Sequence record: PP358550 | Reading direction: 5' to 3' (one strand) | Length of the DNA stretch: 64,000 bases | Origin: Escherichia phage FL04 | Part shown: in pieces, positions 227 through 59,138 of the stretch | Layout: each line of letters starts with the position of its first letter | Numbering within the stretch: the first letter of the stretch is position 1 | The notes under the pieces: model-generated | The model's database searches: none | Told to the model about the DNA's origin: nothing | Seen by the model: the letters and a program-made list of their open reading frames with translations, nothing else | Position numbers and translations under genes: made by a program

Positions 227-424
227 ATGAAGGTTAAAACATTGGCTGATATGGATGAGATCGAGACTCAAGTACACGCGGCGTTAGTCGGTTATGAGTT
301 CGGGCGATTCCTTAATAAGTTCCATGATTATAAATGCTTAAATTGTGGTGCTCATAACGTAATTGGTGCTTGCTGTATTAATCCTGTTATAGTACCATAT
401 AAAAGAAATGAAACAGAAGAGTGA
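227..424 (+). CDS. hypothetical small Cys-rich protein
   Basis: Track ORF 188..424 trimmed to ATG 227 preceded by GAGGATTATATT; CxxC-containing product. Confidence 0.55.
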   Translation: MKVKTLADMDEIETQVHAALVGYEFGRFLNKFHDYKCLNCGAHNVIGACCINPVIVPYKRNETEE

Positions 425-434
425 GGAATACAAG

Positions 435-869
435 ATGAAAAAGTTGATGGCTACATTTCATGATATGCGAGATCTACCAGGTTTAAAACATGTCGATTTT
501 CCTGTTACTATGGAAGTGTCGGAATATGACGGTTATCATGATATTCTGTTCATTAAAAATACTGAGTTTATCCGCTTAGGCGCTAAACCTGCTGTGCTAT
601 ACCCAGAAGGAAACCGGACAGCGGTCAGAAAAACAAATTCTGTTAAATTGTCATTTAGTTCAGATGTTGGCTTGGAACCCGCTTTCGGATATACTCCGGT
701 CGAGATCACAAAATCGAATACTTCTTTCGTGAAAGTTGGAGAGAAAACGCATATTTCAACTATGCCGAACGGTGCACAATATCTATGGTCCGATTTCTGC
801 CAGCGTTATGAGCGTTTATCATGGGCTACCCGCTTATGGTGTGTTGAGTATAAGGAGATCACAAAATGA
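435..869 (+). CDS. hypothetical protein
   Basis: Track ORF 408..869 trimmed to ATG 435 after GAGGAA RBS. Confidence 0.55.
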   Translation: MKKLMATFHDMRDLPGLKHVDFPVTMEVSEYDGYHDILFIKNTEFIRLGAKPAVLYPEGNRTAVRKTNSVKLSFSSDVGLEPAFGYTPVEITKSNTSFVKVGEKTHISTMPNGAQYLWSDFCQRYERLSWATRLWCVEYKEITK

Positions 870-1114
870 TCACCGGATATATTCCATATTCAACGACAAA
901 ACACATTATCGGATTTGAAAACATAGAAAAGTCTTGCTTTCCTCTCAAGGTTGAAGTAGACTTTATTACAGCGAACGGGTGGGCTTACGTTACCGTAGAA
1001 GAAATGAAGCGCATTGGTTGGGAAAATTGCATACACCTACCGCATCTTATCCTAGATGTTCGCGCTGGTGAAATTGATATTGATGGAAAGATCTATGGAG
1101 ATAATGTAAAATGA
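866..1114 (+). CDS. hypothetical protein
   Basis: ORF with AAGGAG RBS; stop/start overlap with neighbours typical of phage early operons. Confidence 0.5.
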   Translation: MITGYIPYSTTKHIIGFENIEKSCFPLKVEVDFITANGWAYVTVEEMKRIGWENCIHLPHLILDVRAGEIDIDGKIYGDNVK

Positions 1115-1314
1115 AAATTAAAATTGAAATTTTTGACGATGGTGGATATTCTTTCATGAAAGGTGTTAAACTTCCTATCATCGTGGAAGGCCGACCGTAT
1201 GGGCATGATTATGTTGTTGAAACGCAGGAATTACAAAAAGCTGGAGTACCGATTAAAGGTTATTCTCCTGAGTATAAATGGTGTTTTCTTAGCAAAGAAG
1301 CCTGGGAAGTGTAA
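1111..1314 (+). CDS. hypothetical protein, small tandem paralog family member
   Basis: 67 aa; shares MKIxIEIxD..GY(S/T)FM..VKLPIIVEGRP...WCF pattern with next ORF. Confidence 0.55.
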   Translation: MKIKIEIFDDGGYSFMKGVKLPIIVEGRPYGHDYVVETQELQKAGVPIKGYSPEYKWCFLSKEAWEV

Positions 1315-1332
1315 TCAATTGAGGATTATATT

Positions 1333-1590
1333 ATGAAGATTGAAATTATTGACCGTGCTGGGTATACTTTCATGGAAAAAGTTAAACTTCCTATCATTGT
1401 TGAAGGCCGCCCCTTATGTCAAGGATTTATGATAAAGACCAGAGAACTACGAAATGCGGGTGTTCCTGTTGAATCATGTTTCAGTGATGATTATGAATGG
1501 TGTTTCAGTGGTTTGCGTGCATATAAAGTAAAAGAAGCACGAAAAGCATCATGGTTTACTCGCTTTAATAACTGGTTGAGGAAACTGTGA
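1333..1590 (+). CDS. hypothetical protein, small tandem paralog family member
   Basis: 85 aa; GAGGATTATATT-ATG start; paralog of 1111..1314. Confidence 0.6.
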   Translation: MKIEIIDRAGYTFMEKVKLPIIVEGRPLCQGFMIKTRELRNAGVPVESCFSDDYEWCFSGLRAYKVKEARKASWFTRFNNWLRKL

Positions 1591-1928
1591 TGGATGAAAT
1601 GAAAATGTATATGATCCTAAGTGATTCAGGATACACCTTCTTACAGGGTATTGATAGTGACTCGCGTCCCATTGTATATGGAAAGGAACATCCGAACATT
1701 CCTGGGATCATTCTTGTTACGACAAGATCACTTCGTCGAGTGTCGGAAAGTCCATACCTACAAAACGTAAAGCAGGACCGAGAATGGGCTTTCGAGTTAG
1801 GTAAAGACCTTGTTGAGTGGGTAAACTGTGAAGACAAGAACCAACGAAATCATGAAAGGAAGATTGCACGAATTTCACAGAGAAGAAAACTTGATGAAAT
1901 CAAAAACCGGATTCTACAATCAATGTAA
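1590..1928 (+). CDS. hypothetical protein, divergent paralog
   Basis: ATG 1590 after GAGGA; SGYTFLQG motif resembles neighbours. Confidence 0.5.
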   Translation: MDEMKMYMILSDSGYTFLQGIDSDSRPIVYGKEHPNIPGIILVTTRSLRRVSESPYLQNVKQDREWAFELGKDLVEWVNCEDKNQRNHERKIARISQRRKLDEIKNRILQSM

Positions 1929-1947
1929 TAGGGTATTCATTGTCCTG

Positions 1948-2157
1948 ATGGAGTCAGAAAACTATCCCGAACTCTCTAAAACGCGTTTTCCGTGCGTTGT
2001 TGAAGCATATAAGGTAAATGCACCTGATAAACGGTTTATCGTGTCAGCGAGCGAAATAAAGCGGTTGGGGGCGATTCCGAAACATGATGAATATGTGTTT
2101 CGTAAGGTGTGCTCTGTACATCATTTTGATGTAGTGGTTAATTCACTAAAATCATAA
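1948..2157 (+). CDS. hypothetical protein (start uncertain)
   Basis: Track ORF 1828..2157 overlaps upstream gene; trimmed to ATG 1948; weak RBS. Confidence 0.35.
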   Translation: MESENYPELSKTRFPCVVEAYKVNAPDKRFIVSASEIKRLGAIPKHDEYVFRKVCSVHHFDVVVNSLKS

Positions 2158-2165
2158 AAAAGTTG

Positions 2166-2194
2166 TTGACAGGGGATCGGTGATCCCCTATACT
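2166..2194 (+). promoter_or_regulatory. sigma70-type promoter with GGGGATCGGTGATCCCC palindrome as 17-bp spacer
   Basis: TTGACA 2166-2171, spacer 17, TATACT 2189-2194; two GATC sites in spacer. Confidence 0.6.
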
Positions 2195-2236
2195 ACACAC
2201 ATCAAAACGAAACACACTTTCTTAAGGAGAATCAAA

Positions 2237-2515
2237 ATGAGCAACCTGTCTTTCGCTAAAGTAGAAATTTCTAAAACTCGCGGTGGCTTTAAAATCAAAA
2301 CTTCCAATATCACTTCCTGCCGTGGTTGCGTCCGGTTTGCGTTCGACTTGGCAGCGAAGCTGGGTATTAAAACCTTTACCGTTGAGAGCGGATCTAACTG
2401 GACCACTCTGATTGTTACTGCCGCTTGGATTAATGGCGAGTATGTGGAAAAAGCATACTTTGACATTTTCTATGACTATGAAGAAAAATGCTTTTATGCA
2501 CTGCAAGACATGTAA
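2237..2515 (+). CDS. hypothetical protein
   Basis: ATG 2237 after AAGGAGAATCAAA RBS, downstream of promoter; track ORF 2180 start runs through promoter. Confidence 0.55.
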   Translation: MSNLSFAKVEISKTRGGFKIKTSNITSCRGCVRFAFDLAAKLGIKTFTVESGSNWTTLIVTAAWINGEYVEKAYFDIFYDYEEKCFYALQDM

Positions 2516-2525
2516 GGAGGATAAT

Positions 2526-2834
2526 GTGACAACACAAGATATTGTTAATGTGCTTTATATCTGGACTACTGGTGCAATGATCTCGTATCTAGTATTCTGC
2601 TTGTACGCCAGATTCGACAAGGACACCAAAGAGGTCGATACAGGAGCATTTTGTATTGCTGCAATCGTATGGCCTATAACGTGGACCGTGGTTGATATTG
2701 TTATGTGTTATAAGGGAATGAAATGTTTTGGTTTGATGATTGCTGGTAAACCGGAAGCGAAGCCGCGCACGCATAAAGGATTCAGTCCAAAACCAGTCGA
2801 TGACGGTCGATATAAACCGGAAGAAGATTTTTAA
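2526..2834 (+). CDS. hypothetical small membrane protein
   Basis: GTG start after AAGGAGG RBS; two hydrophobic helices in translation. Confidence 0.45.
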   Translation: MTTQDIVNVLYIWTTGAMISYLVFCLYARFDKDTKEVDTGAFCIAAIVWPITWTVVDIVMCYKGMKCFGLMIAGKPEAKPRTHKGFSPKPVDDGRYKPEEDF

Positions 2835-2840
2835 AAACTG

Positions 2841-2869
2841 TTGACATGAAAATGCGGTTATCATATAAT
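2841..2869 (+). promoter_or_regulatory. sigma70-type promoter
   Basis: TTGACA 2841-2846, 17-bp spacer, TATAAT 2864-2869; GCGGT/ACCGC dyad flanks the -10. Confidence 0.55.
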
Positions 2870-2903
2870 GACCGCATCAAATGAACGATGTGAGGATTAT
2901 ATT

Positions 2904-3212
2904 ATGTTTATCTCTTCTGCTACTCCAGTTAAAGTTTACGGCGAAACTGTGTATCTTCCGGCTGGCTATCGCTATGTTATCGTTGACCGTCACGGTGTAG
3001 TGTATGCTTTTAAAGGCCGTCCGGTTGAGATTGATTCTGAATACGGTACATGGGGATATAAAGCCGCATACATGGATATTCCTGATTTGGGAGTACGCTT
3101 AGGAAGATTTGATAACAATGTTAAACCATGCTTGATTAAGTATGCATCCTATGGTAAAACTGTTAAACCAAATAGCGTCGGCTGGATTGATGACGGCGTT
3201 AATGTGAAATAA
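2904..3212 (+). CDS. hypothetical protein
   Basis: GAGGATTATATT-ATG start at 2904. Confidence 0.55.
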   Translation: MFISSATPVKVYGETVYLPAGYRYVIVDRHGVVYAFKGRPVEIDSEYGTWGYKAAYMDIPDLGVRLGRFDNNVKPCLIKYASYGKTVKPNSVGWIDDGVNVK

Positions 3213-3226
3213 TGTGAGGTGAATTT

Positions 3227-3520
3227 ATGCTGTCTACTCGTAAAATGGTTGTTGGTGTCGCTGAAAATGCTTTAGAAATCTCTGACGAGGCTTTGACCGT
3301 AGCTTATGTTCAACGTGAAGAATTACTATTGAAACACGCGGATCTATTGGTTGAACGGAAAGAGACTATGAAAGCTGGTAAAAGCACGCTCGCGATTGCC
3401 ATTAAACTATCTGATAGTGAAGATGAGATCGTGGAGATCCACACTAAGATCAAGGAAGTAGAAAAATACTCTGAAATGCTGCGACATAATCTTGATGAAT
3501 TAGGGGTAAATCATGGCTAA
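3227..3520 (+). CDS. hypothetical protein
   Basis: ORF with GAGGTGA RBS. Confidence 0.55.
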   Translation: MLSTRKMVVGVAENALEISDEALTVAYVQREELLLKHADLLVERKETMKAGKSTLAIAIKLSDSEDEIVEIHTKIKEVEKYSEMLRHNLDELGVNHG

Positions 3521-3734
3521 GTTACGATCTGGACGAGTTTTAACGCTGGCTGAACTGAAAGAAAAAGGTTTAGACCCTGATTCTGTCGGTATTAGACCTA
3601 TTAATTACATTCTGTTTCTAGAGGGTAAACTCTTTACTAATGCTCATCCAGCATTAAATGCACCACATTTTTATAAGTGTAATGACTTTAACGGTTATAT
3701 CGTTCCAGAATATTTCTTAGAATTTGATGATTAG
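3513..3734 (+). CDS. hypothetical protein
   Basis: ORF with AGGGG RBS, overlapping upstream stop. Confidence 0.5.
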   Translation: MAKLRSGRVLTLAELKEKGLDPDSVGIRPINYILFLEGKLFTNAHPALNAPHFYKCNDFNGYIVPEYFLEFDD

Positions 3735-4020
3735 TATAAAACACTCACCGACCGGAAAGGGGTCGGTGATCTTCAATGACGATAAACCGTTAATCTTAAT
3801 TCGTAATGGTGACTGGACATTGCATGATACCCGTGTTACTATCCATTCACCGCCTAAAGAGATTCAACGGGAATTGGTTAGGATCACCCTAACTGATAGG
3901 CATAAAGAGGCGGTAGGCTATTCTCTTTTGAAATTAGGTGTTGACTTTCCTTTCGAGTATACGCTAACATTCAGAGAGCAGTCAGTGAAGCTAACAGAGA
4001 TTCTATTCTCTGAGATATGA
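3727..4020 (+). CDS. hypothetical protein
   Basis: ATG 3727 (track start 3724 is TTG). Confidence 0.5.
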   Translation: MISIKHSPTGKGSVIFNDDKPLILIRNGDWTLHDTRVTIHSPPKEIQRELVRITLTDRHKEAVGYSLLKLGVDFPFEYTLTFREQSVKLTEILFSEI

Positions 4021-4030
4021 GGATTATATA

Positions 4031-4462
4031 ATGGTTTATCCAACTCCTAGTAAGATTTACATTGACGATACTCATTTTCTTGTTGAAATTATGGGTATAA
4101 AGTTTAGTGGTAATGTTAAAATTGTAGAATGGGAATTGCACGGTCAACCTGTAACCGATTATGACCATTACATTCCTTTTTTGGGTGATGACAATTTTGT
4201 CTCGTTTGACCATGAAGGTTACATGATCTTTGAACAGTCTGACGTACCGACCTATCTAGCAATGATGCAAATTCCTACGAAGGTTTCTGTTGCTGAGGGT
4301 GATTGCGATTGTTGCGGTTGGTATACTGTAACAGATATTAAGCTGCCATCCGGTAAAGAACTCTATAACGAAGACCATTTTGGAAACTGCAATTTTCCGT
4401 GTGATTGGGATGAATTTTTCGAACTGGTAGAGATTGAGCGAACTTATTTGAGGAAGGGATAA
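4031..4462 (+). CDS. hypothetical protein
   Basis: GAGGATTATATA-ATG start; Cys cluster CDCCGW. Confidence 0.55.
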   Translation: MVYPTPSKIYIDDTHFLVEIMGIKFSGNVKIVEWELHGQPVTDYDHYIPFLGDDNFVSFDHEGYMIFEQSDVPTYLAMMQIPTKVSVAEGDCDCCGWYTVTDIKLPSGKELYNEDHFGNCNFPCDWDEFFELVEIERTYLRKG

Positions 4463-5274
4463 TGAAGAAAGCATTAGGTTTAATTCCCTATACTGGCAAT
4501 AAGGAAAAGTTATTGCCAAGTGTTAGTAAGTATTTCCCTAAGCACTATAACCGCTTTGTTGATGCCTTTTGTGGCGGCTTGAGCGTGTCTCTGTACGTCG
4601 AAGGGGATGTGCTGGCTAATGACTATGATCACCGCTTAATTGAAGCGTACAAAGCTATTGACGAGTGTCCTGATCCGGTTTTTATGATCAAGCGGATTAT
4701 TGCCGAAAATGGTTTGTCTCGCGAAGATAAAGACGCTTACATGACATTCCGTAAGAAGTATAACGAGAATCCAGATCCGCTATCTCTGTTTGTTCTGATT
4801 CAGCACAGTTTTAGCAACATTAACCGACATAACCGGAAGGGCGAATTTAATGCTAATTTTGGTCGCCGGACTTTTAACGAAAACGCGGTAGAGCGTGTCC
4901 TGAATTTTAAAGAAGAAAACAAAGACGGTCGAATCAGTTTTACGTCTGGTCGTTATGACGAGATCGAGATCTTGCCAGGTGATTTCGTTTATTTGGACCC
5001 GCCGTACCTTATCACTTCTGCGGAATATAATAAGTTCTGGAGTGACGAGGAAGAGATTAAATTCTATCAGTGGGTAGAATCTATTATGGCGCGTGGTTTT
5101 CAGTTTGGTATAAGTAATGTCACGCATCATAAGGGAAAGGCAAATGATCATCTTCTTGACTTTATCAAGCGGAATGATTTAAACTGCGTCTTGTTGAATA
5201 AGACCTATTGCCTAGATCGTTCAGGTGGCAAGTCTTCTGATACGCAAGAAGTTTATGTAACTAACGTAGATTGA
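4462..5274 (+). CDS. dam: DNA adenine (GATC) methyltransferase Dam
   Basis: Translation closely matches T4 Dam (as recalled) end to end, including DPPY catalytic motif and FCGG SAM-binding motif. Confidence 0.9.
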   Translation: MKKALGLIPYTGNKEKLLPSVSKYFPKHYNRFVDAFCGGLSVSLYVEGDVLANDYDHRLIEAYKAIDECPDPVFMIKRIIAENGLSREDKDAYMTFRKKYNENPDPLSLFVLIQHSFSNINRHNRKGEFNANFGRRTFNENAVERVLNFKEENKDGRISFTSGRYDEIEILPGDFVYLDPPYLITSAEYNKFWSDEEEIKFYQWVESIMARGFQFGISNVTHHKGKANDHLLDFIKRNDLNCVLLNKTYCLDRSGGKSSDTQEVYVTNVD

Positions 5275-5282
5275 GGTATAAC

Positions 5283-5564
5283 ATGGTAGAAATTTTTGGT
5301 TTTGAAGGTTACAACTGTAAGTATTGCCAGAATGCAAAGCGCCTTTGTGAATCGCGTAAGATCCCTTACATCTACATTCCGGTTAATGATGGTGTTGACG
5401 AAAACGGTCGCCCTGTAAAGATTGATTCTGTCATTGCCGATATTCAGGATCGAGCAGGGGTAGAAGTTATTGCCACCATGCCGCAGATTTTCTATAATGG
5501 TGATTATATTGGTGGCTTTGATGAGTTCCGATCCTTTGTAGTCAAAAACAAGATTAATGGTTAA
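5283..5564 (+). CDS. nrdC: NrdC-like glutaredoxin/thioredoxin
   Basis: CKYCQNAKRL redox motif and TMPQIF..GGFD match T4 NrdC; sits upstream of gene 49 as in T4. Confidence 0.8.
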   Translation: MVEIFGFEGYNCKYCQNAKRLCESRKIPYIYIPVNDGVDENGRPVKIDSVIADIQDRAGVEVIATMPQIFYNGDYIGGFDEFRSFVVKNKING

Positions 5565-5588
5565 ATACCTTCTTTGGAGGGTGAATTT

Positions 5589-6062
5589 ATGTTACTGACT
5601 GCTAAGAGTGCTAAAGAGTACAAACAAGAACTATTCGAAAAACAGGGGGGCATTTGCCCCCTTTGTCAATTGCCACTTTTTGAGGATATGAGCAAAAACC
5701 ATCTTGACCATGATCATGATCTAGATGGGAAAGGGCAAGGCCGAGTAAGGGGATTGCTTCATTCGTGTTGCAACCGCCTAGAAGGATCGTTGACCGGAGA
5801 CTTTAAACGGTTTGGTGTTGGTGCTTTAGGTGCTGATTTCGTTGTTTGGGCTACAAACTATGTTAATTACATCAAAGGAGACTACACCAACAATCATTTA
5901 CATCCTCAATATGCTGTTGATAAAGTAAAACGATTTTCACGCTTGACACGCGCGGAGATGGTTGCTATTATGGACGCAGAGGGTTTCGATTACTGCGACG
6001 CTGATACACGAGAAGAAATCACGAAGAAGTATAAGAAACAATTCATACAAAGATTAAGATAG
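5589..6062 (+). CDS. 49: endonuclease VII (Holliday junction resolvase)
   Basis: HLDHDHD..G.VRGLLH.CCN motif and overall similarity to T4 gp49. Confidence 0.9.
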   Translation: MLLTAKSAKEYKQELFEKQGGICPLCQLPLFEDMSKNHLDHDHDLDGKGQGRVRGLLHSCCNRLEGSLTGDFKRFGVGALGADFVVWATNYVNYIKGDYTNNHLHPQYAVDKVKRFSRLTRAEMVAIMDAEGFDYCDADTREEITKKYKKQFIQRLR

Positions 6063-6065
6063 TAG

Positions 6066-6094
6066 TTGACAATAAGAAATGGGAGTAGTAAAAT
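6066..6094 (+). promoter_or_regulatory. sigma70-type promoter with GGGAGTA/TACTCCC dyad around -10
   Basis: TTGACA 6066-6071, spacer 17, TAAAAT 6089-6094; palindrome 6081-6100. Confidence 0.6.
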
Positions 6095-6125
6095 ACTCCC
6101 ATCTAATCAAGAAGGAGAATCAACA

Positions 6126-6398
6126 ATGCGTAAGATGTTTAAATCCGGTGTGGCCTATGTTTTTAAATCTGAGCAAGCACATAAAGACTTCTTAGATGAT
6201 GAATACGAAGGGGTGAAAGATACCTACGAAGTCATCAAGAATGGGTTTACTGTTCTTAAAGTGTCACCTGTTGGTTATGTAAGTGAAATAGCGGTTGATG
6301 GGAAAACATACACCGCTAAAGACTTTGACCCGCGTTGGGAATTTATGCTGCTTCCGTGTGAGCGCATTCTGTTCCGTGCTGTTCAATTAGTGAAATGA
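6126..6398 (+). CDS. hypothetical protein, multi-copy ~90-aa domain family (single domain)
   Basis: ATG 6126 after AAGGAGAATCAACA; shares G.YxF.......F...V..GF.VL.V...G.V..I..DG..YT pattern with at least 8 other genes. Confidence 0.6.
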   Translation: MRKMFKSGVAYVFKSEQAHKDFLDDEYEGVKDTYEVIKNGFTVLKVSPVGYVSEIAVDGKTYTAKDFDPRWEFMLLPCERILFRAVQLVK

Positions 6399-34599: not shown

Positions 34600-34613
34600 T
34601 TAATGAGGTGAAT

Positions 34614-35132
34614 ATGTCAGAATTTAATTCTTGTGCTGGTCTGGTTAACGAAAAAGATATTAACGCGGCTATCGCCGCATATCATCACGCTATTGCAGAA
34701 GGTAAAGATCCGTTTCAGGTGATGCTAGAAATGCAAACTGGTTTGCAGGTTGCATTATCAGAAAAATTTGATTGGGTCCCAAATCCAACTAAGCTAGAGA
34801 CTTGCGGTGAAATGCTGGATTGGATGCAGCGGATGGATGACGCTATCGCAGACGAAACACGAGAGCTTTACACATCGCTGGGTGGAATGTCCAATGGTAA
34901 AGATGCAAGTGCAATCTGGAAAATGTGGAAAAAGAACCACGGGGAAGCGCGAGCGCGTAAATTCTCTGAACTGTCACCGGAAGATCAGCTTGAAGTGAAA
35001 TTTGAATTTGTGGATGCGATCCACTTCATTCTGTCAAAGATGATCCCGCTGGGTATTGACGCTCAAGAACTCTTTATTCTGTACTATCTGAAAAATGCTG
35101 AAAACTTCGCCCGTCAAGAACGCGGCTACTAA
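34614..35132 (+). CDS. 56: dCTP pyrophosphatase (MazG-like) gp56
   Basis: ATG 34614; all-alpha NTP-PPase pattern (E..E..D, LYYLKNAENFARQ); position after 61 as in T4. Confidence 0.7.
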   Translation: MSEFNSCAGLVNEKDINAAIAAYHHAIAEGKDPFQVMLEMQTGLQVALSEKFDWVPNPTKLETCGEMLDWMQRMDDAIADETRELYTSLGGMSNGKDASAIWKMWKKNHGEARARKFSELSPEDQLEVKFEFVDAIHFILSKMIPLGIDAQELFILYYLKNAENFARQERGY

Positions 35133-35139
35133 AAATTAG

Positions 35140-35168
35140 TTGACACTACTCTATAATGGTTTTATTAT
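35140..35168 (+). promoter_or_regulatory. sigma70-type promoter
   Basis: TTGACA 35140-35145, spacer 17, TATTAT 35163-35168. Confidence 0.45.
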
Positions 35169-35201
35169 GCCTCCCGTCGAAAGATTGGAGGCTTTTTTAT
35201 T
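35169..35201 (+). terminator. hairpin plus T-tract that also contains the RBS of the downstream gene
   Basis: GCCTCC-N12-GGAGGC followed by TTTTTTATT; GGAGG lies in the 3' arm. Confidence 0.5.
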
Positions 35202-35705
35202 ATGCAATTTACACCAGAAGAACTTAACATCATTGATGAATTGATGAACTCTAAAGAAAATATCGATATGTCGATCCTTAATGGATTGATCGAAAAGACT
35301 GAACGGTTAGTGCATCATGAAGCCTTGTATCGCGGTGTGAGCAAAAGAGAAGGCCGTAAGCTGGATACCTTAATTGTAGGTGATTCTTTCGTTGTAGATC
35401 GTCCTATGAGCTTTACGCCACTGCAATCAACAGCAGAGGACTTTGCAACCGATGTTTATGCAACAGGAAAGATTATTGCAATAAAACCTACCAAGCCTTG
35501 CATGAATTATTACGAACATGCTATTGACCGAGTGGTGTCTAAAGAGTATGACAATCCGACTACTCGACTGTCTTTGTATGCTATGTTGGCAGATGAGCGC
35601 GAGTGCATATACAAGACAGGGACGACCATGATCCTTGATGAGATCGAGGAAGTTTACGCGTGTAATGGCGATCTGATAGAGATTTACAAATTTTCTTTAA
35701 TTTAA
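35202..35705 (+). CDS. hypothetical protein, candidate ADP-ribosyltransferase (ModA/ModB-like)
   Basis: 167 aa; R (LYRGVS), S-T (QSTAED) and E-x-E (DEIEEV) motifs in ART-like order; lies in the 56-dda interval where T4 encodes modA/modB. Confidence 0.5.
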   Translation: MQFTPEELNIIDELMNSKENIDMSILNGLIEKTERLVHHEALYRGVSKREGRKLDTLIVGDSFVVDRPMSFTPLQSTAEDFATDVYATGKIIAIKPTKPCMNYYEHAIDRVVSKEYDNPTTRLSLYAMLADERECIYKTGTTMILDEIEEVYACNGDLIEIYKFSLI

Positions 35706-35708
35706 GTG

Positions 35709-35737
35709 TTGACAGCACAAACCAGATAGACAATAAT
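35709..35737 (+). promoter_or_regulatory. candidate sigma70-type promoter
   Basis: TTGACA 35709-35714, spacer 17, weak -10 AATAAT. Confidence 0.35.
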
Positions 35738-35766
35738 ACACACATACCAACTAAGGAGAATCAATT

Positions 35767-36522
35767 ATGAAACTGTTTGCTTTTAAATCTAACGAAGAAT
35801 TGGCGCTGGTTGTTTTCCGGCTGAACTCTATCATGGCTGGCGCTTCACGTCGCAACAAAGACTTCTCTATGAGCTTAGTCACTGTTCGTAACATTTACCG
35901 TCAGACTCATTGTGTCTATTCAGGTGAGGCTTTCGGTGAAGGTGATGACGGACTCTCCTTAGAGCGCATTGATTGCAATCTGGGATATGTTGATGGCAAT
36001 GTAATTCCGGTTAAACTGAAATACAATTCTTTCCGTGGCAATCACACTATCGAATCTCTTAAAGAGATCCAAGAACTAGGAACTAACGGTAAACTTTCTG
36101 ATGATGAAATTGCCCTACGTGCGAAGTACATCGAGTGGATCGAACTTAACGAGAATCGCATCAAAAATCAGGAAATGGCAATCGAAGAAAAGAAATTAGC
36201 AATCGAGCGCCACAAAAAGCACAACGAACCGGAGAAAGCAGAGGCAGCCGAGCGAGCGATTAAAAATACTCTCTTCCGTATGGAAGAACGTTATCAGAAA
36301 ATTGCAGATCTCAAGCAAGCCCTTAGCGAAATCAACAAGAAAGAAGAAAAACTTAAGGCTATTGCAAACAATACCGAAATCGTGCTAAAATATACCAGCG
36401 TTTTGATTGAATCTCTTTCTAAGTATGAGAACTTAACGCCAGCACAAAAAGAACGCGTGAAATACGGGCTTCCGATTGATGCGTCGTGGATTGAATTGAT
36501 GAAAGCGAAGGTAGGTTTATAA
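35767..36522 (+). CDS. hypothetical protein (position and size comparable to T4 srd)
   Basis: 251 aa; C-terminal half predicted coiled coil. Confidence 0.5.
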   Translation: MKLFAFKSNEELALVVFRLNSIMAGASRRNKDFSMSLVTVRNIYRQTHCVYSGEAFGEGDDGLSLERIDCNLGYVDGNVIPVKLKYNSFRGNHTIESLKEIQELGTNGKLSDDEIALRAKYIEWIELNENRIKNQEMAIEEKKLAIERHKKHNEPEKAEAAERAIKNTLFRMEERYQKIADLKQALSEINKKEEKLKAIANNTEIVLKYTSVLIESLSKYENLTPAQKERVKYGLPIDASWIELMKAKVGL

Positions 36523-36836
36523 TGCATGTATTTGCTGTATGTTATCGTGATAAAGACGGATTCTTTCAATACTCAGTGGACGCGAAAGGTCGCGTCCTAA
36601 CTTGCGAAACACATGATGCTGCGTTAGCGTCAATGTGTGATCAGATAGATTATTGTGAGAGTCTATTGGCGGGTGAACCGAAATACAAGGTTGTACCTAA
36701 ACGAAAATTTGGCATAATCCGGTCTTCTGAAATTGTTCGGGATGGTATAGAATATAAAATTCCTGAATATGAAAAAGAACGGGTACGGCGAGAACTCAAT
36801 ACTATCTGTGTTCGCAAGGTGAGGATTTTAGGATAA
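36522..36836 (+). CDS. hypothetical protein
   Basis: ORF immediately upstream of dda. Confidence 0.5.
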   Translation: MHVFAVCYRDKDGFFQYSVDAKGRVLTCETHDAALASMCDQIDYCESLLAGEPKYKVVPKRKFGIIRSSEIVRDGIEYKIPEYEKERVRRELNTICVRKVRILG

Positions 36837-56306: not shown

Positions 56307-59105
56307 TTAGAATTTAAAATATTTACTAATTTTGCGAGCAATTTTAGTAAAGAGAGGCGTTTTCAATTCTTTAATTTCTTCACTCATTTCCTGAATAGCC
56401 TTAATTAAAAGAGCATTCACAGCGGAGTTAGAAATTGTCAGAACATCAGATCCATCAACTTCAACTTTAGACACAGCTTCCGGTAATTCTTTTTCAAGAT
56501 CCTGAGCAATAATACCAACTTCGCGTTTAATCACGCTACGATCTTTAATAGACTTAACTTTATCGTAAGTATAAACTTTCAGTCGGCAAACTTTTTCGAC
56601 CGCTCCATATTCTAATTCTTCTTTATTAATCTTGAGACGGGAGTCAGAACGAATATACACATCGCTAAAGCTACCATTTCCTGGTGTATAAAAGAATCCA
56701 TCATGATGGAATTCAAATATAGCTTGTGGGTGTCCAGCATCAGGAGAAGCCTCCGTGGATCCGACGCGAATGATTGCTTGCCCCCACTGTGATGGAATAC
56801 GACGCATACCAAAGTCAACAGCGGTGCTATATCCTTGATTGGTTATAACGCTTCTTGCTTTAAGAATAGGATAATAACTATCTTGACCAACATAACCATG
56901 ATCAACGAATAATGGAGCTTCTACTCGCCATTGGTTGCCCCAATCACCCGGTTGTCTAGCAATCCATCCAGAACCGTTAATGTGTACACGGTCGCGGTTA
57001 ACGTTAACCATTAAGGTATTTTGCGGGTTTAACGCAATCTCACCATTGTTTGTTATATGTACTGCCGCCTGAGTAGCATAGCTATAAAATGCTAGCGAAT
57101 TATCAGCACCACCTTTACCAATATACCAGTTACCATTCCCGTCTACGTCACCGCGAATATGCAAAGCGTTGCTGGCTGTAGTCGATAATACAATAGCATC
57201 ACCCGGACGTTTAATAGTCAATCGACCAGTTGATTCAACTTCACCAAAGAATTTAGTTTTAATTGCACCAGTCGCTAAAGTACGTTCAGTGGAAAAATGA
57301 GCGCCTTTACTATCTTCTAACTGAATAATGTTATCACGAGCGTTATTGCTATCACCCCAATGATTAAACCGGAAATAATCGCGTGATTGCTTACCACCCG
57401 CTTCAAACGTCAGCGTACCTTTACTTAAATTAACATCACCGCTAAAGGTAGCAGCAAGAGAACCGCCTTTTAATACTAAAGCGTTAGCACCGCTAGTGCC
57501 ACCCAAAGTAACATCGCCAGTTTTTAATTGATAGCGGAAAGGTCTATTTGTATTAAAGTTTCCATCTTGATCATTTTCGTCGGTGGAAAGAATATAAAGA
57601 CTTTCACCATCATTACGGAAAATTGTGCCAAATTTACCGCCATACATACGGAATGCATTAGATGAGCGGAATTTAACTTCTGTTTTAAATGTGGTAGTGT
57701 TATTAAGGTTAACAGTAGAGTTAAAATTGGTAGGAGCACCGAAGTTAACAGCACCATTAAAATCTTGTTGAGCTGTCCATGTGTGGCGACCATCTTCAAG
57801 AACAACACGGCGGACTGTGTAAGTTCTATTTCCAGAATTACCGAACACACGAACGACAAAATAACGGTAGTTTGTCTGGGATACAGTACCGCGCCAAACC
57901 TGAACAGTACGCCCTGTGCTAGTGTGTTCACTAGGACCAACGGAAAACATAACCAGGTTTCCGTCAATCGTCCCCCAATCCATATTTGCTGGCATGTTCT
58001 TTATTTTGTTCAAAGGAACGCTAAACATACTACCAGGAACAAAATCAAAGGTTTGCCAATCTAACTCCGCTAATTGAGCTTTAATACCACCCATACCCAA
58101 AGTAATTGGAAGAGAATAAGATGTATATACTTCGTTCCATACACCCCACGCACCACCAGTATATGCACGCTCAAAAATACGATCGCGAGTAGTTGCACCC
58201 GTTCCGGCAGTAGTAAATTTTTGGAAAATAGCACCACCAGAAGCACGCTGTTTAACTTCCAGCAAACCAACAATAACGGCTGGTAAACCTTCACCAGTAG
58301 GACAGTTAATAACGGCATCAGTGCCTAAAATGTTATATAACCCAGGAGTTTTAAAATCATTCAGATCTCCATCATAGAAAGTCGCTGGTGTGCCATGACC
58401 AACCTGCTTCCATTCCTCCCACTTAGGTGCACTAGCATCCCATGCAGCAGCGAGACAACGAGTATAAACCATACCCATGCGGGTAGTATAACGCTGCGTT
58501 CTTGTGTAGAAACCACCTTCAAATATTTCTAAAAATCCTTGTGCGGCTGATCCTTCTTCTGGATAATGGCGATCAAATGATGCGATTGCGCTTGAACTGT
58601 TTCTCCATAAGCCACAATGTTCTAATTCTCCCAAGCTATCAAGGTCAATCGTTTGTGAAAGTGGACGAGTTGACGCTTGAACATTACGCCACACACCCCA
58701 TGGACCATCTACACCATTCCATTTCGCAGACAAAGAACGGATATAAACGTTACCAGACCGAACAGTATAACGCTGAGTGCCAGCAAATTGACCAGCCACA
58801 AATACTTCTAATACACCTACAGCATTCTCTTCTGGGAATTTATTTGCTGGCTGCGCATTTGTTGAAGTTGATTTAGACCAAACGCCAGTAAATTTACCAG
58901 TAGGTCCATAATTATCTAAATTTGCATCAGATGGCAACTCACCGCGAAAGTGTCCCAAAGTAATTACATTATTGCTGTCATCTTTTGTATATAGTTCTCG
59001 ATCCGCTAGGTTAATAGCAAGTTCACCCGGAGTTAGAATATTCGCATCCGGCTTGCGACCTGCCGTACTTGTTCTTTTAAATTGGATTCTCTGTAAATCT
59101 GCCAT
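56307..59105 (-). CDS. 37: long tail fiber distal subunit gp37 with C-terminal intramolecular chaperone domain
   Basis: 932 aa, beta-rich Gly/Asn/Thr-rich repeats; C-terminus has YIRSDSRLKINKEEL autoprocessing-type motif and helical tail. Confidence 0.85.
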   Translation of the reverse strand: MADLQRIQFKRTSTAGRKPDANILTPGELAINLADRELYTKDDSNNVITLGHFRGELPSDANLDNYGPTGKFTGVWSKSTSTNAQPANKFPEENAVGVLEVFVAGQFAGTQRYTVRSGNVYIRSLSAKWNGVDGPWGVWRNVQASTRPLSQTIDLDSLGELEHCGLWRNSSSAIASFDRHYPEEGSAAQGFLEIFEGGFYTRTQRYTTRMGMVYTRCLAAAWDASAPKWEEWKQVGHGTPATFYDGDLNDFKTPGLYNILGTDAVINCPTGEGLPAVIVGLLEVKQRASGGAIFQKFTTAGTGATTRDRIFERAYTGGAWGVWNEVYTSYSLPITLGMGGIKAQLAELDWQTFDFVPGSMFSVPLNKIKNMPANMDWGTIDGNLVMFSVGPSEHTSTGRTVQVWRGTVSQTNYRYFVVRVFGNSGNRTYTVRRVVLEDGRHTWTAQQDFNGAVNFGAPTNFNSTVNLNNTTTFKTEVKFRSSNAFRMYGGKFGTIFRNDGESLYILSTDENDQDGNFNTNRPFRYQLKTGDVTLGGTSGANALVLKGGSLAATFSGDVNLSKGTLTFEAGGKQSRDYFRFNHWGDSNNARDNIIQLEDSKGAHFSTERTLATGAIKTKFFGEVESTGRLTIKRPGDAIVLSTTASNALHIRGDVDGNGNWYIGKGGADNSLAFYSYATQAAVHITNNGEIALNPQNTLMVNVNRDRVHINGSGWIARQPGDWGNQWRVEAPLFVDHGYVGQDSYYPILKARSVITNQGYSTAVDFGMRRIPSQWGQAIIRVGSTEASPDAGHPQAIFEFHHDGFFYTPGNGSFSDVYIRSDSRLKINKEELEYGAVEKVCRLKVYTYDKVKSIKDRSVIKREVGIIAQDLEKELPEAVSKVEVDGSDVLTISNSAVNALLIKAIQEMSEEIKELKTPLFTKIARKISKYFKF

Positions 59106-59138
59106 TTTATAAAATCCTTAACGGTTGTTAGAATAATA

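Follow-up and report, generated by a model that had tools for sequence, protein, structure and literature searches.

Phage ADP-ribosyltransferases reprogram host transcription and translation, and the question raised by the locus described here is whether a small open reading frame (ORF) of Escherichia phage FL04 encodes such an enzyme and how it relates to ModA and ModB of phage T4. The ORF, which we call mod, lies in a 64,000-nucleotide stretch of the phage genome (sequence record PP358550; hereafter the window) at positions 35202..35705 on the plus strand. It starts with an ATG at 35202, ends with a stop codon at 35703-35705 and has a product of 167 amino acids (aa), a placement made by an earlier sequence-only reading and borne out by the sequence and the list of ORFs. 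That reading had also taken the product for a candidate ADP-ribosyltransferase on account of three short motifs. Based on homology, gene order, the predicted fold and the conservation of catalytic residues that align with T4 residues essential by experiment, we consider it very probable that the ORF is the gene of an active mono-ADP-ribosyltransferase of the Mod family, within the R-S-E clade, and the sole Mod gene of this Krischvirus phage.

By sequence comparison the 167-aa protein is a homologue of T4 ModA and ModB. PHROG 832, "RNA polymerase ADP-ribosylase", matched residues 2-153 with E=1.4e-20, and the precomputed Pfam label PF26816 (Mod_ADP_RT) was found on every homologue that we retrieved from a large protein collection, including the 98% identical P0001. 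With the shared gene order and the predicted fold described below, these matches support the ADP-ribosyltransferase reading that the motifs had suggested. The Mod proteins are a recognised family within the R-S-E clade (PMC9503650). A word-indexed homologue search with the single protein returned three relatives, and a family alignment and an exhaustive search of representatives were needed to see the family. Since the exhaustive profile search of 1.84 billion representatives gave just 22 clusters at E<=0.001, the Mod family is small and confined to phages. A profile of Mod proteins, built with the window protein included, matched the mod ORF with E=2e-59 and no other among the 426 six-frame segments of the window, in which no second Mod or Alt paralogue was found by this search; mod is therefore the sole Mod gene in the 64 kb.

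The identity of the gene as an ADP-ribosyltransferase is already known from public phage genomes. The 2.3 kb around the ORF are 98.7-99.2% identical to Krischvirus genomes, for example those of RB49, FL38, W115 and kvi, and judged by this identity the source phage is a Krischvirus of E. coli, RB49-like and T4-type. The RB49 record (AY343333) names the gene "modB, ModB ADP-ribosylase", and dozens of genomes that are 98-99% identical label it an ADP-ribosyltransferase; other names in the records are "ADP-ribosylase", "NAD--protein ADP-ribosyltransferase" and "ModA or ModB ADP-ribosyltransferase". With tblastn, homologues were detected in 588 phage records, nearly all of them annotated modA or modB. 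The assignment is thus correct but ordinary, and the "ModB" label that GenBank gives to the RB49-type gene is a best-hit name.

The gene order points in the same direction. In the window, DNA primase 61 is followed by gene 56 (nucleoside triphosphate (NTP) pyrophosphohydrolase), mod, srd, dda.1 and the dda helicase; srd was recognised by its match to PHROG 1400 (E=1e-72) and dda.1 by the Pfam family Phage_Y01A. The order in T4 is 56–segF–soc–mrh.2–mrh.1–mrh–srh–modA.4–modA.3–modA.2–modB–modA–srd–dda.1–dda, and the earlier statement that T4 carries both modA and modB in this neighbourhood is correct. Because of this correspondence with T4, the mod ORF is seen to occupy the modB/modA slot of a much-reduced interval. 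A mod-gene slot between gene 56 and srd/dda is also seen in T4, JS10, STP4-a, X20 and RB49, with a single mod gene in the modB/modA slot of STP4-a and X20 and two in JS10. From gene 56 to dda.1 (35133-36836) the window has two genes, mod and srd, compared to 13 in T4 (256-6315 of locus L001), so that at this locus the RB49-type phage has no second mod gene and none of soc, srh and mrh.

To locate the catalytic residues we used four alignments, reaching down to 20-30% identity. One paired the window protein with T4 ModB and ModA, and a second covered nine diverse Mod proteins; the other two had 23 proteins each, one set coming from the word-indexed search and the other including representatives from the exhaustive search. 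Across these alignments R44, G45, S70, F81, E132, E134 and K18 were invariant, and A78 and Y86 nearly so. E132 and E134 were invariant in the nine-protein and exhaustive-search alignments, and in the word-indexed alignment they were missing from one truncated sequence only. The R of the R-S-ExE signature is provided by R44-G45 in LYRG (codons 35331..35336, plus strand, as are all codons given here), aligned to R73-G74 of ModB and R72-G73 of ModA. The S-x-S/T element is S70-F71-T72 in MSFT (35409..35417), with S70 aligned to S99 of ModB (SFT) and S96 of ModA (SAS), and the ExE (Glu-x-Glu) motif is E132-R133-E134 in DERECI (35595..35603), aligned to E171-Q-E173 of ModB and E163-Q-E165 of ModA. 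The ModB double mutant R73A/G74A is catalytically dead (PMC10468400) and the ModA mutation E165A abolished ADP-ribosylation (PMC11404850); the T4 residues that are essential by experiment map onto R44/G45 and E134 of the window protein. A profile search of the sequences in the PDB gave only sub-significant matches, to Vis (E=0.12) and XopAI (E=0.17), which were used just for residue alignment; here the family YRG falls on the YRG of Vis, tSFs on TSTS of Vis, and dEkEwm on the ExE of Vis (KEAEVLF) and XopAI (NEQEVLFP).

The structure of the protein was predicted with AlphaFold2 from a 23-sequence alignment, giving a mean predicted local distance difference test (pLDDT) of 92.1 and a predicted template modelling score (pTM) of 0.85. 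When this model was compared with the PDB by Foldseek, the top 50 matches were all R-S-E mono-ADP-ribosyltransferases, each with a probability of 1.00, and included Certhrax, CDTa, BECa, iota Ia, VIP2, C3, ExoT, Plx2a, HopU1, C2-I, XopAI and VahC. In a comparison with predicted viral structures, ModB/ModA-type proteins were the best matches other than identical ones, with query TM-scores of 0.85-0.93, and ModB-type predicted structures superpose on the model with a TM-score of ~0.9. The model places R44 on strand 42-45, the S70-F71-T72 element at the end of strand 69-72 and ahead of helix 75-85, and E132/E134 where helix 119-132 meets strand 135-137, so that the R, S-x-S and ExE elements sit in the predicted structure as expected for the ADP-ribosyltransferase (ART) fold of the R-S-E clade (C3/VIP2-like). 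The sequence-only reading had named the lack of an ART fold and of conserved motif residues as what would count against it; what was found is a predicted ART fold and a conserved R-S-ExE triad at R44/S70/E132-E134.

The order of catalytic elements is the same as in the R-S-E toxins (VIP2, iota Ia/CPILE-a/CDTa, C3, Certhrax, Vis, HopU1, SpvB). In contrast to these secreted toxins, the window protein is a presumed cytoplasmic early protein of the phage, has no secretion, translocation or binding domains, is at 167 aa smaller than the solved domains, and has only 8-21% identity to them with no significant match by sequence alone. Alt of T4 belongs to the same R-S-E clade and follows the same logic of host takeover, the annotation of PHROG 832 covers both, and an Alt protein model was among the distant structural matches of the window protein. 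However, Alt, a protein of ~600-700 aa that is packaged in the head, is of the Alt/VIP2 family and not of the Mod family (PMC9503650).

Several observations weigh against this assignment or limit it. The Pfam-A copy that was scanned lacked PF26816 and for that reason gave just noise for the window protein (DUF5507, E=0.13), NCBIfam had no match to it and likewise none to T4 ModA or ModB, and a search of the PDB sequences with the single sequence returned noise (lysyl-tRNA synthetase, E~0.8). The curated libraries that were scanned gave nothing; what places the protein in the family are PHROGs, the precomputed Pfam label, the alignments and the predicted fold, and the structure is itself a prediction. 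The identity to T4 ModA and ModB is only 25-27%, and the N-terminal ~30 residues and a ~12-residue insertion of the T4 proteins are absent; because of this, target recognition could differ from that of ModA and ModB. A literature search found no biochemical report on the RB49-type protein or on members of the short sub-clade to which it belongs.

This sub-clade was recognised in a rough neighbour-joining distance tree of 46 Mod proteins, made without support values, in which the window protein groups with six proteins of 161-176 aa (P0001-3, P0024-26), apart from the T4-ModA clade and from a large ModB-like group. On a profile of the ModB-like group, built without the short clade, the window protein scored 87 bits and T4 ModA 113 bits; on a profile of the near relatives of T4 ModB the scores were 66 and 82 bits, and on a ModA-clade profile 22.6 bits compared to 429 bits for T4 ModA, itself a member of that profile. 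Neither the grouping with ModB and the ~200-230 aa architecture that strict orthology to T4 ModB calls for, nor the grouping with the T4 ModA clade that strict orthology to ModA calls for, was found. Based on the tree placement and the profile scores, the window protein is a generic Mod member of a compact sub-lineage, with neither T4 paralogue as its clear orthologue. Two narrower models assign it the targets of one or the other T4 enzyme, and they are not mutually exclusive.

According to the first of these, the protein is orthologous to T4 ModB in function as well, and would ADP-ribosylate S1, EF-Tu and trigger factor and could RNAylate S1/L2 with NAD-capped RNA; T4 ModB itself both ADP-ribosylates and RNAylates rS1 and rL2. 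The identity is slightly higher to ModB (27% over ~164 aligned positions) than to ModA (25%), the SFT and VGD/E motifs are common to the window protein and ModB, whereas ModA has SAS, the score on the broad ModB-like profile exceeds that on the T4-ModA-clade profile (87 and 23 bits), and the GenBank annotation is ModB. R73, S99 and E171/E173 of ModB are in the same columns as R44, S70 and E132/E134, and both genes occupy the same slot between gene 56 and srd-dda.1-dda. However, the tree places the window protein in its own clade of short forms outside the ModB-like group, and on the profile of near relatives of ModB it scores below T4 ModA itself. The N-terminal ~30 residues of ModB are lacking, as is the insertion of ~12 residues that ModB has before the helix preceding the ExE motif. 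RNAylation is in addition not predictable from sequence, because it is not understood why ModB but not ModA RNAylates (PMC10468400). We regard ModB function as possible, but not as the probable outcome.

The second model holds that the main target is Arg265 of both RNA polymerase alpha subunits, the target of ModA (PMC2988021), and that the enzyme completes the modification begun by the injected Alt. It is in line with mod being the sole Mod gene in the window, with tblastn giving one place per Krischvirus genome, with the diverged alt gene of RB49 (PMC1524935), and with mod lying directly upstream of srd, exactly as modA does in T4; R72 of ModA aligns with R44, and E165 with E134. The adjacency to srd would also be expected of a single-copy gene, as in STP4-a and X20. 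Moreover, the score on the T4-ModA-clade profile is just 22.6 bits, ModA falls in a separate clade of the tree, and no ModA-specific sequence features were seen; ModA, for example, has SAS instead of SFT and is without the VGD segment. We regard a ModA-like role, too, as possible but not probable, slightly less so than ModB function.

Beside these two models, the short Mod lineage, found in Krischvirus and related uncultured phages, may form a third functional lineage next to ModA and ModB, with a minimal ART core that lacks the N-terminal extension. As the sole Mod enzyme of its phages it could combine both specificities, or it could have targets or a use of NAD-RNA of its own. We put this forward tentatively, as a possibility that we would not expect to be borne out.

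That the protein is a degenerate, inactive remnant of a Mod enzyme, kept for a non-enzymatic role or decaying, is very unlikely. It is indeed 33-40 residues shorter than T4 ModA and ModB, and T4 modA is dispensable in the laboratory (PMC2988021). The sub-clade nevertheless keeps all of the catalytic residues, although its members, constant in length at 161-176 aa, have diverged to 38-73% identity, which argues for purifying selection on the active site and is the reason for our low rating of this alternative. The compact and confidently predicted model contains the whole ART core, and what is missing is an N-terminal extension and a surface insertion, not the core.

Active enzyme of the Mod family thus remains the preferred reading, with the triad at R44, S70 and E132/E134, and the weakest alternative concerns only where its catalytic elements lie. 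The strings on which the sequence-only reading was built are all present, ALYRGVS at residues 41-47, QSTAED at 75-80 and DEIEEV at 146-151. The first contains R44, which is invariant in the family, but the Ser-Thr and ExE elements were misplaced in the other two, and the S-x-T at S70-F-T72 and the second ExE at E132-R-E134 went unmentioned. That S76/T77 of QSTAED and E147-x-E149 of DEIEEV are the catalytic elements can be dismissed as scarcely credible: the strings do occur in the right order, and some members of the family keep IEE at 148-150 fairly well, but S76/T77 vary across the family and are replaced by TT in P0002 (73% identical) and AI in P0003 (62%), D146 and E147 vary in close relatives, DEIEEV lies inside a predicted beta-strand and its columns read SKE in T4 ModB and RYE in ModA, both active enzymes, the essential E165 of ModA aligns with E134, and the solved arginine-specific ARTs align their ExE with E132/E134. 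QSTAED (35424..35441, plus strand) begins helix 75-85, with conservation limited to A78 and F81, and DEIEEV (35637..35654, plus strand) lies in the middle of strand 142-152; as catalytic elements both were ruled out by conservation and secondary structure.

The ordered R...ST...ExE pattern was also at chance level as a signature, as it occurred in 17% of 20,000 shuffles and in 7 of the 82 long ORF segments of the window, and the loose pattern was for this reason rejected as stand-alone evidence. A stricter pattern that takes up the family-invariant residues, [YFW]RG...SxS/T...ExE with family-like spacing, occurred in 0.09% of shuffles. The stricter expression also matched a 936-aa segment at 56310-59117 on the minus strand, a match that we attribute to chance because the segment has domains of a tail-fibre-type protein (Gp34_trimer and the intramolecular chaperone Peptidase_S74).

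Upstream of mod, the sequence contains a match to a sigma-70-type, T4-early-like promoter (TTGACA-17 nt-TATTAT; 35140..35168, plus strand), which agrees with 11 of 12 consensus positions and is a match at the sequence level only. Its -35 hexamer is invariant in the contigs that carry orthologues of 62-73% identity; promoter-like sites in the region numbered 4 compared to 3.8 in shuffles, and are thus not above shuffles. Directly adjoining the promoter match is a terminator-like hairpin for gene 56, with GCCTCC...GGAGGC at 35169-35192 and a run of six T (35169..35198 in all, plus strand, from RNA folding), followed by the ATG at 35202. The free energy of the hairpin is -15 kcal/mol (z = -3.8), and none of 200 shuffles was equally stable. 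The Shine-Dalgarno sequence of mod, GGAGG (35187-35191), sits in the 3' arm of this hairpin.

The hairpin would form in RNA that reads through from gene 56, and may then lead to termination, at 35193-35198, to occlusion of the ribosome-binding site, or to both. An RNA that starts ~7 nucleotides past the -10 hexamer, near 35175-35176 and thus inside the hairpin, would miss the 5' arm and be translatable, as the fold of 35176-35215 is without such a structure. In the contigs with Mod proteins of 62-73% identity, the intergenic stretch upstream of mod has a mean column identity of 94%, so it is more conserved than the coding sequence, and the hairpin in the contig of P0003 carries a compensatory change to GCCCCC/GGGGGC. 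This conservation, the compensatory change and the position of the Shine-Dalgarno sequence in the 3' arm suggest a control of mod translation that depends on where the transcript starts. Transcript-start-dependent control of translation is known for several T4 genes. A second strong early-type promoter match (TTGACA-17-AATAAT, 11/12) was found at 35709-35737, right past the end of mod and ahead of srd, and from this match the small early genes mod and srd each seem to have their own promoter.

Taken as an active Mod enzyme, the product of mod would be made soon after infection, by early transcription from its own sigma-70-type promoter. It would bind NAD+ (nicotinamide adenine dinucleotide) in the split beta-sheet cleft of the ART fold formed by R44, S70 and E132-x-E134, where R44 and S70 would hold the NAD+ and E134, as the catalytic glutamate, would promote cleavage of the bond between nicotinamide and ribose. 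E132 would direct the ADP-ribose onto arginine side chains in host proteins. In ExE enzymes of the R-S-E clade the first Glu, here E132, confers arginine specificity, and the window enzyme is probably arginine-specific. By analogy to T4, likely targets would be proteins of host transcription, translation or both (PMC2988021, PMC10468400), for example RNA polymerase alpha, ribosomal protein S1, EF-Tu or trigger factor, and their modification would shift gene expression in favour of the phage. T4 ModA is highly toxic, and toxicity would be expected of the window protein as well.

The genes next to mod gave some additional observations. The gene 56 homologue (34608-35132, plus strand) matched Pfam dUTPase_2 (E=3e-5) and PHROG 173, NTP pyrophosphohydrolase (E=5e-37), and is named either dCTPase or dUTPase in public records. 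Its start was called at a GTG at 34608 (525 nucleotides), and RB49 annotates a slightly shorter product (519 nucleotides). The N-terminal ~100-170 residues of the Srd-like protein (35767-36522, plus strand) also match HNH-endonuclease and endonuclease PHROGs, namely phrog_3118 (E=1.2e-11), phrog_3322 (E=2.6e-10) and phrog_1035 (E=1e-3), which hints that its N terminus may be derived from an HNH-type domain.

As mod is the RB49-type counterpart of a gene that is already annotated, its confirmation adds little. The value of the analysis lies in having fixed the catalytic residues (R44, S70 and E132/E134) for mutating the enzyme, and in the recognition of a compact, single-copy lineage that is distinct from both T4 paralogues. 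A target spectrum of its own for this short lineage is the only mildly novel reading left, if true, and the compact lineage could serve as a minimal model for the determinants of target choice and RNAylation in the Mod family.
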